From: Psilocybe cubensis
Lineage: Eukaryota
DNA length: 64,000 nucleotides
Assembly (NCBI GenBank): GCA_017499595.2
Contig: CM039000.1
Coordinates: 2,790,001-2,854,000 of the forward strand
Direction: 5' to 3'
Under the pieces are notes generated by a model. The model was not told where the DNA came from. It did no database searches and saw only the letters and a list, made by a program, of their open reading frames with translations. The position numbers and the translations under genes are program-made. Within the stretch, counting starts at the first letter, position 1; every line of letters starts with the position of its first letter. Of this stretch, positions 16,449-20,022 are shown piece by piece.

Positions 16449-17960
16449 TCATCGTATTTCGACACCAAACTGCTCTTTTAGACGAGCTACGACCTGACTC
16501 TGTACGTGGTTAATTTCTTCGTTTGACAGAGATCTGCGTGTTGTGAATGTTGCAATGAGCTGAGATTTGTAGAGGAATTTAGTTGTGATTCGTACCTGTC
16601 CATCGAACGGTAGTTGATTCTATAACAAAGACTTGTTCTATTAGTTTTAGGGTGGACAAACTGGTCAATCTGCAAAACTTGAATTAGCAACTGAGCATGG
16701 GATGTCTCGAGCCATACATACCCTTTTAACATCTTCCACCAAATCACCTGCAGTATCGCGCACAAGGTCGCAAAAGTCATTTTCGTGCAGATTAAATTCC
16801 CGAGGAACCCAGAAACTGACATCCTTGAAGCACGAAGGGTATTTTGAATATGGCTGGAAGACATTAATCTGGCCCTGCTTGAACTGAGAGAGGAAGCGGG
16901 GGTCTGTAGACCAGAAAAGGCGAATGTCAGGGATCGAAAATAGCACCATGGCTATTCTTTCCAATCCCAATCCAAAGGCCCAGCCAATTTTGTTCTGAAC
17001 GCCTGGAAAAAAAAATATCGTTCATTGGTCTGTGAAATGAGCAAGAATCCTATACACACCTGCTGTATCTAACGTTGCTTGCCGTATGACGCCCGATCCG
17101 AGTATCTCCAGCCATTTGCCCTGGAAGAAAACCTCGACTTCAAAACTGGGGCTCGTGAACGGGAAATACGCCTCAATCCAGCGCACGCGCAACGGCTCCT
17201 GCGCGCTGATCCCCGCCACATCTCCAAACACCTTCAGCAGCAAATTATTCAACGAAAGCTTCAGATTCTTCGCCACCAGCTCGGAAAACACAGGATCGTG
17301 GCCGGGCTGCACAGGGTTCGTCGGCGAGATATGGGGTATATCCTCAATAACGATGTTCGCAGTGGCAAGCAAGCTGGTGAGACGCGCATTGTCTTCCTCT
17401 ACCTCCTTCATCCCTGCAGCGTTGGTGTCGAAAATCCGCGCGCCCTCGACCTGGTGGAAGATGGGGTAGTGCGACGCGTCGATCTCGTCCCGCCGGTACA
17501 CATCCGCGGTGAGCAGCCATTTCGTCTCGCCTGCGCGGAACATCTCTACCTCGTGCGCCGATGTGTGTGTGCGCAACATCATGTCCCTGTTCACATAGTA
17601 GCTGTCCGTCACCGCGCGCCCCGGGTGGTCGGCTGGGAATGAAAGCTCGTCAAAGTTCTTGAAGGGTGAGACGAGAGGTGAAATAGTGGAAGCATGCGTG
17701 AAGTCCGGGTAAGCAGACTCTATGAGGGTGCGGAGCGTGCTAAGGGGGTGCGCGGGTGTGGTGTGCAGCTGCAGGTGCGTTCTGGATATAATCGCCGGAG
17801 TGATGTTAGTGTAGTCGTCAGTTGGGAACCGTTGGCCCAGGATTTCGATAGTAGCGGAGGAAGCAAGCGTTGATTGACGCGCAAATGGTGCTCTATGTCG
17901 CAACGACACCAGTAACCGCGATGAGTATGTGTTTCGTCGCCATAGGGCGAGCGCGGCCAT
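16449..17960 (-). CDS. MSF1: Mitochondrial phenylalanyl-tRNA synthetase
   Basis: [52 protein letters not shown] and [20 protein letters not shown]. Anticodon-binding domain ends [13 protein letters not shown]...FGVEIR* (TGA 16449-16451). Confidence 0.95.
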
Positions 17961-18360
17961 GTTAGCTGAACACGGAAGCTCACAATATTCGTGATTTCCT
18001 CGAGTTCGCTTATCTAATGTCTGATTATTGACAACGAGAGAATGGAAAAACAGGTTCCCTGTATTTTATTCATGGCGTCAACGAAATACTACTACTTCTA
18101 CTTTATGTATACTACACAGCTAAGTACGGAAATCATATCTGCTCAAGGTCGTAAATAATGCCCCTCGAAAGCCTCGAATTTGGTTCGTGCACCAAATCCT
18201 GTCGCCATGAATGGACCAAGGGTAAAAAAGGTGGTACAAAAACACTGGGGTGGGAATAAGTGTCCGTCAAGGTAAACAAAAACATAGGTATAACATCAAA
18301 AAAGTCATGAACGTGTGGTGATATGATATAAAAGGCAAACGCAAGATTGTCCAAAACTAT

Positions 18361-19712
18361 CTACCAATTCCCGAACCAGCGGGTAGGTGGTCGTATAGGT
18401 CCACGAACAACAGTGCGGGGTTTGCGCGGATCCTTTTCCTCGGTGATGACTTCAACAGCAGTGGTTCGCGGGCTTCCGGCTGACGTAGAAGGGCTTGCGG
18501 CCTCGGGAGTTGGGAAAGCAGCAAGGCGCGTATTGGCGGGTGGGGGAACAGTAACAGTTTCGGTTTGAACAACAGTCTTGGTTTGCGTCTCGTAAGAGAT
18601 TTCTGAAACGACGATGGGTGGAAGTTCTTGATACTAAAAATAAGGAAAAAAAATTGAGTCAGCATTGTTATACAGAAAACAAAAGGAATGGGTTGCAAGC
18701 TGCCGATCAACAAGCAGCGACACGCCATCACGTGTTACTACTTCGATCGATTTCTCGATCGCGAATATATGAAGGGCGTCAAGACGCGATCTCATGTGGA
18801 GGCGCCTCGACCCGATTGATCGGCAGCTTGCAAAGGACAAGGGGGACGAGATAAAAGCACCGTGGTCCCCCAAGCCCGGACGAAGGTGGGAGACAAGGGG
18901 CATGAGGAGTAATACGGACTGGTCATGATGGGACCCCCTTCGTCTCAGAGCTCGGAGCGGCGGGGGGAAGGTGGCGGTACCTTGGGTTTTCGCTTCGAAG
19001 GCTCGTAAACATATTCTTCTTCGACAGCGGACTGAGGATCGCCATTTCCAAGGGCACTACAATTCCCGATGAGTAACCGTGCCAGTAAGTAAATAATTAA
19101 GAAAGACGCTTACATGAGTTGTTCCATGATCCATCCCTCACGACGGGAAGCGTCATGTTCCCTGCGGTTGACATTTTCTTCGCGCTTGCTGATATCGCGT
19201 TCTCTCTCGGCAATTTTGAGTTCACGTTCGAGAATTTCTTCAGCGCGAGGACCATTCCAGCCAGCTGGGGCCAATGAATCTTCTTTGACAATTTCTTTGA
19301 TGATGGTTTGAGCAGGAAGTGTTTCGGTGACGGTTGTAGTAGCACTGACGCATGCTGGGCACAAAACAGGCGAGGGAGTGGGAATAACACCACCTGGCGC
19401 ACCAGCGAGCAATTCAGCTTCCCGACGGGCAACTTCAGCTTCACGTATAGCGACAGCTCCTTCTCGAGCAATGAGGGCCTGTGTCCTCTTAGGAGTAAGG
19501 TAGCTAAGAACGCCTCCGGGAGTAGATGAGTCTGAGGAGCTGGAGTTGGAAGGAAGAGAGAGCATAACAGCTAGGACAGCAAGAACAAGAGACAAAACAA
19601 GTAGAAGAGTCGTGGATGAGATTGTGCGATGATGATGTGATGATGAACGTTCGCGTTCGCGGTCGCTTCTGTGGCGACGTTCTTCATGGTGGGAAGACGA
19701 TGGTTGGGCCAT
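18361..19712 (-). CDS. Uncharacterised single-pass membrane protein with coiled coils and a Pro/Thr-rich C-terminus (3 coding exons)
   Basis: ATG 19712 MAQPSSSHHEERRHRSDRER. TM helix TLLLVLSLVLAVLAVMLSL; coiled coils AIREAEVARREAELL and ILERELKIAERERDISKREE. Introns 19057-19113 and 18634-18980 join in frame to YQELPPIVV...PTRWFGNW* (TAG 18361-18363). Confidence 0.75.
18634..18980 (-). other. Long (347 nt) structured intron containing a perfect 18-bp inverted repeat
   Basis: Donor AAG|GTACCG, branch GCTGAC, poly-T tract and TTTAG acceptor. TTGCAAGCTGCCGATCAA (18693-18710) is the exact reverse complement of 18816-18833. Further stems at 18841-18847/18865-18871 and 18879-18886/18937-18944. Confidence 0.75.
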
Positions 19713-20022
19713 TCTTATCTTTTCTGAATAGAGGAGTAAGAAAATGAAAAAATCCACTTGGAAATAAAAAAAAACCAACCGCTAATAGAAGCACTGGGCG
19801 ACAGTGAGGTCGCGGTAGGGGCTCGTAGTAAGATCGACGTGGTGAAGAGAGGGACAAATGCGCGTGAAGAGCACTAGAGGTTTAACGATGTTCGTGAATG
19901 GAGATAGAAGGGTAACGCAGGATGGGGGAATAGAAAAAAGAGAAAATAGATGGTGGGGGTTTAAGAGCAAGGGTAGCGCTGAAGTTCAACAAGCCCTTTT
20001 GCCGTTTTCATTGTTCAACCAC

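Follow-up and report, generated by a model that had tools for sequence, protein, structure and literature searches.

Why does a gene whose other two introns measure 57 and 56 nucleotides (nt) keep a third of 347 nt, folded into hairpins and opening with a non-consensus 5′ splice site? The intron in question is intron 2 of a minus-strand gene in a 64,000-nt stretch of the Psilocybe cubensis genome (GenBank assembly GCA_017499595.2, contig CM039000.1, forward-strand positions 2,790,001–2,854,000), which we call the window and number from its first letter. A sequence-only reading of this stretch had proposed that the folded intron either controls alternative splicing or hosts a non-coding RNA. 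Our analysis favors, at a probability of roughly 0.6, an ancient structured regulatory intron in which two competing 5′ splice sites (D1 and D2) are joined to one acceptor and RNA structure controls the choice between them. The alternative donor and the two proteins that follow from it are the part of this finding in which we have very high confidence. The intron is a candidate for a cis-regulatory RNA that is conserved across Agaricales and Boletales and that overlaps a coding function.

Conserved cis-regulatory RNAs with a defined structure are seldom found in eukaryotic nuclear genes, and the thiamin pyrophosphate (TPP) riboswitch is described as the only validated riboswitch class in fungi (PMC5882874). 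The locus offers a compact and testable case, about 150 to 350 nt in size, in which mushroom-forming fungi have jointly conserved the RNA fold, two donors of unequal strength (one weak, one strong) and an overlapping reading frame. The locus may also serve as a marker for how short-intron spliceosomes cope with long introns, and it opens a first way into the function of an uncharacterized membrane protein that occurs throughout Basidiomycota.

Two donors share one acceptor

Twenty public runs are listed for the gene, and four of them (X9, X10, X11 and X12) were compared with the window. X10 and X11 are presumed, as a guess, to be RNA runs; each contributes a single assembled contig in which the junction 18633|18981 skips 347 nt, bounded by CT..AC on the plus strand and hence by GT..AG on the gene strand. 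The borders that had been proposed for intron 2 are exact in both. The same contigs skip introns of 57 and 56 nt, and the earlier description of intron 2 as six-fold over-length is therefore right for this gene. Because all of these skips are bounded by GT..AG on the gene strand, the pattern is the one expected of spliced mRNA. On the minus strand the intron reads GTACCG ... TTTTTAG and is flanked by two open exon frames.

The non-consensus character of D1, with C at +5, is not peculiar to the window. All 35 loci keep aagGTACC, which has no G at +5; that G is present in each of the 34 intron-1 donors from the genomic loci and the window, and likewise in D2. Nested (stwintron-like) or U12-type splicing of D1 was considered and rejected from sequence, as no such reading yields the observed AAG|TAT junction. 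Splicing from D2 to the same acceptor would remove a 286-nt intron spanning 18634–18919. The D2 hexamer (GTCCGT, GTCAGT, GTCTGT or GTTAGT) forms one conserved island, with T63 and G66 invariant, within a loop that is variable in sequence and length.

Metagenome contigs scanned with a protein alignment gave 38 loci, 36 of which contain intron 1 and are genomic. The remaining two, L004 and L026, look like cDNA because intron 1 is missing from both. In each, the sequence runs 74–75 nt past D1 and then joins exon 3, with no AG in front of the joint. Alignment of L004 to the related genomic locus L006 leaves a gap of 217 nt that starts with GTCCGT and ends with TTAG, with exact GT..AG borders. Two donors are thus joined to one acceptor, each in transcript-like contigs, as in an alternative 5′ splice site; note that the two junctions come from different species. 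Both splice forms exist in nature. The sequence-only reading had expected the C-terminus to be changed by retention of the whole intron. A conserved structured cis element is indeed tied to such a change, but the form documented in relatives is D2 joined to the common acceptor rather than plain retention. The distance from the stop codon of this form to D2 varies from 25 to 72 nt across the sequences and is not uniformly below the 50 nt of the rule for nonsense-mediated decay.

The intron encodes a conserved alternative C-terminus

The spliced gene model gives a long protein of 315 amino acids (aa), the 90-aa C-terminus of which ends in RWFGNW. When D2 is used, a 61-nt exon extension remains that encodes VPPPSPRRSEL and a stop codon, giving a short protein. 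A search with exon 1 returned 480 homologues, all from Basidiomycota where named, the best being 96% identical and from Psilocybe cyanescens. Among the 120 best, 44 are long forms ending in ...RWFG(N/G)W and 28 are short forms with exons 1 and 2 spliced that end in the intron-2 read-through peptide; five more short forms read intron 1 in frame, 40 stop in intron 1 (unspliced genomic calls) and three are of other kinds. The same or a similar read-through peptide therefore ends 33 of the 120, and both splice products encode conserved proteins (44 long, 33 short). The tail and TGA stop that had been predicted for the retained intron are correctly translated and are conserved in homologues as a coding extension.

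Variants of the peptide include VPPPSPRRSEL, VPPPLPRRSEL, VPTPPQRRFDL, VAPPLQRRSEL, VPPFPRRSEL, VPRRSEL and VPPPPPQQRRSEL, among others. Its length ranges from 7 to 13 residues and is always in frame, with in-frame insertions and deletions, and it ends in R-x-[E/D]-[L/F] with the stop codon directly after. In the 13 distinct 11-codon versions, variable sites fall 5/3/9 on the three codon positions and summed pairwise differences 123/97/311. Variation rich in third positions marks a translated sequence, and the 'retained-intron' tail is therefore better regarded as a conserved alternative C-terminus; the short-form peptide is under coding constraint. The short isoform ends in R-[S/F/P]-[E/D]-L (18948–18959), which we take to be reminiscent of endoplasmic reticulum retrieval signals of the K/HDEL type. 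A basic N-terminus precedes the single membrane helix of the protein, which points to a C-terminus on the lumenal or outer side of the membrane.

Two kinds of source supply the short forms in which intron 1 is spliced. Twelve of the 28 are from JGI or Logan contigs of ~1–1.7 kb, compared with about 10 long forms from such contigs, which we infer to be transcripts. The other 16 are NCBI gene models of ~231–251 aa that read into intron 2 (P0001, P0004, P0005, P0024, P0059 and 11 others). The NCBI model of the closest relative is a 236-aa short form, and models from other species have ~311–344 aa. The short NCBI models all finish with the read-through peptide; annotated proteins of both lengths are therefore products of a single gene and do not represent two families. 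For annotation this means that the short NCBI models and the long models of other species describe the same gene.

Conservation of the intron and its structure

The orthologous intron is 272–415 nt long in 23 of the 25 genomic metagenome loci in which both ends could be placed. Shorter orthologous introns occur in L032 (179 nt) and L036 (224 nt, acceptor unconfirmed). The long intron is also present in a locus that has an exon 2 with 96% identity to a protein of Suillus (order Boletales), and the nearest named relative of the window is in Agaricales; on this distribution the long intron is ancestral. In the near-identical relative X9 the intron is present, with one letter changed across 18200–19127. 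In the relative X12 (<90% alike) it has the same length, with 98 nt (18641–18738) replaced by 99 unalignable letters.

Folding each sequence separately recovers three elements in most lineages: (i) a helix that starts directly after the stop codon and holds D2 in its loop (hairpin A); (ii) a GGGGGAC...GTCCCCC hairpin (hairpin B) and (iii) a long irregular hairpin with a closing stem of 14–25 bp (stem C of domain C) that ends 25–45 nt before the branch point. A covariance model of hairpins A and B, R1, has exactly one match per locus in all 25 genomic sources (E 1e-39 to 2e-10), and its next-best matches in the window have E-values of 0.13 and 0.83. In the alignment of A and B, 85% of cells are paired, versus 42–62% when the partners are slid. 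R1 also located the A–B core at L027:3720-3899 and L031:2054-2236 (69.9 and 62.4 bits), both missed by the peptide pattern.

The distant loci L032 and L036, with 38–41% protein identity, have a hairpin A of wholly different letters (GGAGAGGGGCGAC with GTCGCCCCTCTC) in the same place after the stop codon. Both keep A, B and D2 and are without domain C, for which L032 has no room. A and B therefore form the core and domain C is an accessory. Domain C was tested in 14 loci, with the near-duplicates L009, L019 and L030 left out and L001 and L006 unscored. Its closing pairing is stronger than in all 100 shuffles in 10 of the 14, and stronger than in 99 shuffles in two, 98 in one and 88 in one (L028). 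The sequences of the domain C arms differ between lineages while the pairing persists. These comparisons are evidence that pairing itself is selected in helix A (from L032 and L036) and, more clearly, in domain C. The architecture as a whole is conserved, hairpins A and B mostly in sequence and stem C as pairing.

Fold of the intron

The coordinates that had been given for hairpin A, hairpin B and the 18-bp stem all hold: the inverted repeat is perfect over its 18 nt, with arms 105 nt apart, and the core arms of hairpin A are GACGAAGG (18937–18944) and CCTTCGTC (18879–18886). The sub-hairpins, including CGATCGA-GAAA-TCGATCG, are present in the minimum free energy (MFE) structure. Relative to shuffled controls the sense strand folds unusually well: its MFE is -129.4 kcal/mol, whereas 100 dinucleotide shuffles average -91.8 (z -7.9; 0/100 as good). 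The antisense strand has an MFE of -120.9 kcal/mol (z -4.0), a strong fold that Watson–Crick inverted repeats lead one to expect. Hairpin B is nearly invariant in sequence, with 93% of cells paired over 25 sequences. G-U pairs that exist on the sense strand only, which the sequence-only reading had pointed out in hairpin A, are conserved in A and B (GU 20/23 cells, UG 19/25 cells). A count of G-U versus A-C (162 versus 4) was set aside as biased by the folding itself. Downstream of domain C, GCTGAC is aligned in most orthologous introns at the position of the branch-point-like motif. A pairing of D1 with the loop of hairpin B (GTACCG/CGGTGC), seen in the window MFE structure, was dropped because relatives lack covariation at the Pro-codon wobble base.

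Competing pairings of the post-stop strand

The strand that follows the stop codon does not have a single partner. In the window, GACGAAGGGGG pairs with the strand before the GGGCTTGGGGG landmark at a probability of 0.87. Among 21 sequences, the partner lies before this landmark in 14 and after it (the 3′ strand and tail of hairpin B) in seven. The alternative pairing is preserved no less well over the alignment, being 82.5% paired, with 5 of 10 pairs changed on both sides and a score that 0 of 500 shuffles reach. Duplex energies of the two pairings in the window are -19.4 and -17.7 kcal/mol. The GGGCTT segment also has two possible partners, in lower stem A and in the tail of hairpin B, both ~90% kept.

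These competing pairings raise the possibility that the A–B core is a true RNA switch, riboswitch-like or factor-gated, responding to a metabolite, temperature or an RNA-binding protein. We regard this stronger reading as unlikely. The proposed switch would consist of the invariant part GGGCTTGGGGGAC ... CGGT ... GTCCCCC and two mutually exclusive pairings: the post-stop strand would pair with the strand before or after the invariant core, and GGGCTT with either the final codons of the coding extension or the tail of hairpin B. A signal that flips the fold would then toggle the membrane protein between a short -EL tail and a 90-residue tail. If true, this would be an RNA switch kept since before the split of Agaricales and Boletales.

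A model for donor choice

Our preferred reading, structural control of the D1/D2 choice, can be put as a simple competition. Splicing from the weak donor D1 (AAG|GTACCG) removes 347 nt and gives the long protein, and splicing from the consensus-like D2 gives the short protein. The post-stop strand would pair downstream of D2 in hairpin A, placing D2 in a closed loop, while hairpin B and the long stem C would absorb most of the remaining length and bring D1 near the branch point. With A formed, the strong D2 would be looped out, the weak D1 would lie at a short-intron distance, and D1 would win; with A unformed or opened, D2 would win. In this way structure may set or regulate the D1:D2 ratio. 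Close relatives with near-identical hairpins gave either D1 contigs (X10, X11) or D2 contigs (L026), which fits condition-dependent choice and is no proof of it.

Several observations weigh against this model. The helix called hairpin A is not one fixed structure, since the partner of the post-stop strand differs by lineage. Within A and B, both partners have changed in only 5 of 24 pairs, a result matched by 224 of 500 shuffles; covariation is modest here because the sequences are so conserved. RNAalifold on a MAFFT alignment did not recover hairpin A, returning only hairpin B and weak pairing of C/U-rich with G-rich segments. D2 is mostly unpaired in the predicted ensembles (mean unpaired probability 0.17–0.94), and any masking would therefore be by looping out and not by direct pairing. 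Nor does folding shorten the predicted distance between D1 and the branch point beyond what shuffled introns give. The sequence-only reading had emphasized that folding leaves only 90–100 unpaired nt, but in the window the exterior-loop path takes 48 steps versus a shuffle mean of 21.8, so that this figure is unexceptional by such a measure. Strand comparisons favor neither strand clearly: the sense z-score is lower than the antisense one in 8 of 14 introns, and 162 G-U pairs are counted in the sense direction against 141 in the antisense direction. Finally, the X10 and X11 contigs contain only the D1 joint, and D2 splicing comes from two other species (L004, L026); the X10 and X11 contigs do not cover 18656–18940 and contigs drop rare forms, so they are no evidence that D2 use or retention is absent. 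What stands of the earlier proposal of structure-controlled splicing is a structured intron conserved together with alternative donors; the gating by ligand, temperature or protein that went with it is speculative and, like the switch above, unlikely.

Alternative explanations

The folded domains might do no more than enable a short-intron spliceosome to process a long intron, as zipper stems do, with D2 use being constitutive leakage at a fixed ratio. The placement of stem C is that of a zipper stem, starting 7 nt after hairpin B and ending 30 nt before the branch point (PMC12350175), the X10 and X11 contigs hold D1 alone, and no ligand or protein is known. This explanation, which we find possible but rather unlikely, gives no account of why the intron was kept long, or of a conserved D2 and a short reading frame with coding-type variation. 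Moreover, short forms are about as frequent as long forms among the transcript-like contigs, and A, B and D2 persist in L032 and L036 without the domain that would act as the zipper. Conservation could also reflect an independent small RNA within the intron, either a small nucleolar RNA (snoRNA) or a microRNA-like RNA made by Dicer from the 18-bp stem. Long conserved introns of fungi often host snoRNAs, and stem C, at least 18 bp, is long enough to be a Dicer substrate. However, a cmscan search of 18000–19800 on both strands gave 0 matches at E ≤ 1 among 4227 Rfam families (including the TPP riboswitch), so that the hosted non-coding RNA of the sequence-only reading is not supported. No Rfam snoRNA matched, a dedicated snoRNA finder not having been run, and the CTGA close to the 3′ end is accounted for by the branch-point motif. 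A, B and D2, where conservation is strongest, coincide in part with the coding extension and a splice site, and the sequence conservation that a mature small RNA would show is lacking in the arms of stem C. We consider a hosted small RNA very improbable.

Two further explanations concern the DNA. A short interior rich in palindromes, flanked by terminal inverted repeats that are perfect over 18 bp, would suit a miniature inverted-repeat transposable element (MITE) or foldback transposon of 141 nt in an ordinary intron, its structure being a by-product; the sequence-only reading had itself named a MITE as a case that would refute it. The window holds no further copy of the arms, only a chance-level match with three mismatches and blastn matches of ≤14 nt. 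The only X9 contigs that match the element at ≥80% likeness are two records of the locus itself, neither of them partial, X12 yields no extra pieces either, and no target-site duplication (direct repeat) is found beside the arms. In other genera and in Boletales, an equally long intron has an equivalent long-range stem in the same place built from other sequences. A transposon origin of the 18-bp arms is thus largely refuted within the window and the X9 and X12 contigs, and we give it almost no weight. The palindromes may instead act in DNA, with domain C serving as an intronic enhancer or promoter that carries sites for dimeric transcription factors (CACGTG, ATCGAT-like). CACGTG, part of a CACGTGA motif at 18728..18734 (minus) inside domain C, is similarly placed in 12 of 20 aligned introns, compared with 11 copies in the whole window; ATCGAT-like palindromes occur in most aligned introns, and both strands fold about equally. 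Against this, stem C keeps its pairing despite sequence change, unlike a protein-binding DNA site, and the conserved G-U pairs of A and B exist on the sense RNA only. As a full explanation it is quite improbable, although it may hold for the CACGTGA motif by itself, in parallel with structural control of splicing; that motif could be a protein-binding site in either RNA or DNA.

Host gene and neighboring features

The features of the locus are collected in Table 1. The host protein has no Pfam family at the cut-off and no RNA-binding domain, and its Atlas neighbors are unnamed Basidiomycota clusters only; we describe it as an uncharacterized Basidiomycota membrane and coiled-coil protein. A 5′ untranslated region (UTR) intron of 56 nt (19724–19779, minus), which ends 12 nt upstream of the ATG, is spliced in the X10 and X11 contigs. 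In L008 (1821–1830), intron 1 seems to begin with GC (AT|GCACGT), where the close relatives L009–L015 have GTACGT, and may be a GC-AG intron.

The next gene downstream begins ~400 nt past the stop codon, at about 17600–17960 on the minus strand, and the cDNA-like contig L026 continues (about 950–1064) into the start of this neighbor. Two Mycena homologues of the host protein carry the name 'Phenylalanyl-tRNA synthetase', which was probably carried over from the downstream gene. An 80-nt contig of X10 matches the 3′ UTR stretch 18260–18311 in both orientations (a foldback record, depth 768) and is probably an assembly artefact at the 3′ end of the transcript.

Table 1. Parts of the host gene and of its intron 2, in window coordinates
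Feature	Position	Strand	Remarks
Exon 1, coding part	19114..19712	minus	ATG at 19712; gene model and X10/X11 contigs
Intron 1	19057-19113	minus	57 nt; skipped in X10 and X11 contigs
Exon 2	18981..19056	minus	76 nt; gene model and X10/X11 contigs
Intron 2, spliced from donor D1	18634..18980	minus	347 nt, phase 0, between K225 and Y226
Exon 3	18361..18633	minus	Long form: 90-aa C-terminus and TAG stop; short form: 3′ UTR
Donor D1, GTACCG	18975..18980	minus	AAG before it; non-consensus, C at +5
Coding extension when D1 is skipped	18945..18980	minus	VPPPSPRRSEL and TGA stop (18945-18947)
Hairpin A, lower stem 5′ strand, GAGCTC	18948..18953	minus	Last codons of extension; pairs with 18872-18877; 91-96% of cells paired, 25 sequences
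Hairpin A, upper stem 5′ strand, GACGAAGGGGG	18934..18944	minus	Begins directly after stop codon; MFE
Alternative donor D2, GTCCGT	18914..18919	minus	Loop of hairpin A, 61 nt downstream of D1; consensus-like
Hairpin A, upper stem 3′ strand, CCCACCTTCGTC	18879..18890	minus	MFE; duplex -19.4 kcal/mol
Hairpin A, lower stem 3′ strand, GGGCTT	18872..18877	minus	Alternative partner GTCC after hairpin B
Hairpin B, GGGGGAC ... GTCCCCC	18841..18871	minus	Arms 18865-18871/18841-18847; conserved CGGT in loop
Domain C	18693..18833	minus	Perfect 18-bp closing stem 18816-18833/18693-18710; 105 nt inside with three sub-hairpins
Branch-point-like CTGAC	18658..18662	minus	30 nt past domain C, 22 nt before acceptor AG (18634-18635)

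Relation to known systems

A full-text literature search, not exhaustive, found no description of this element; supplementary tables of Agaricomycetes alternative-splicing studies may list the event. The SDC motif of Li and Breaker (2017) is described in ascomycetes, in a 5′ UTR with upstream open reading frames, and the text of that paper does not describe the present element and has 0 occurrences of Basidiomycota, Agaricomycetes or Agaricales (PMC5640933).

The zipper stems described for long Saccharomyces cerevisiae introns, RPS17B and others (PMC12350175, PMC2536676), resemble domain C in that sequence evolves fast while the stem persists (PMC12350175). They differ in that the present intron has three structures in series rather than one stem, encloses a second functional donor, overlaps a coding extension and belongs to Agaricomycetes, where the default intron is ~55 nt. 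[quoted passage not shown] The linear linkers of stem C are 147 + 30 = 177 nt from D1 and about 80 + 30 nt from D2, and a linker of ~64 nt is reached only when hairpins A and B are counted as collapsed. With linkers outside 42–85 nt, the action of stem C is therefore zipper-like but outside the strict definition. Stem C does agree with another part of the same description (PMC12350175), being 18 bp long and occupying intron positions 148–288, with CTGAC at 319.

The Neurospora crassa NCU01977 TPP riboswitch, in which long-distance base pairing occurs near a 5′ splice site (PMC3597705), is alike in being a fungal intron between coding exons where pairing near one of several 5′ splice sites picks the donor, with an architecture conserved across species. 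It differs in that our intron has no TPP aptamer (0 Rfam matches) and the gene no link to thiamin. Intron 1 of yeast RPL7B is reported to combine a zipper stem with a mutually exclusive, conserved alternative structure (PMC12311795). The likeness here is a weak splice signal aided by a stem and a competing fold that switches the aid off, which may be compared with the two partners of the post-stop strand. RPL7B is autoregulated by its own RNA-binding protein, the outcome being splicing or no splicing, whereas the host protein of the present intron has no RNA-binding domain, and what is decided is which of two donors, and with it which of two protein tails, is used.

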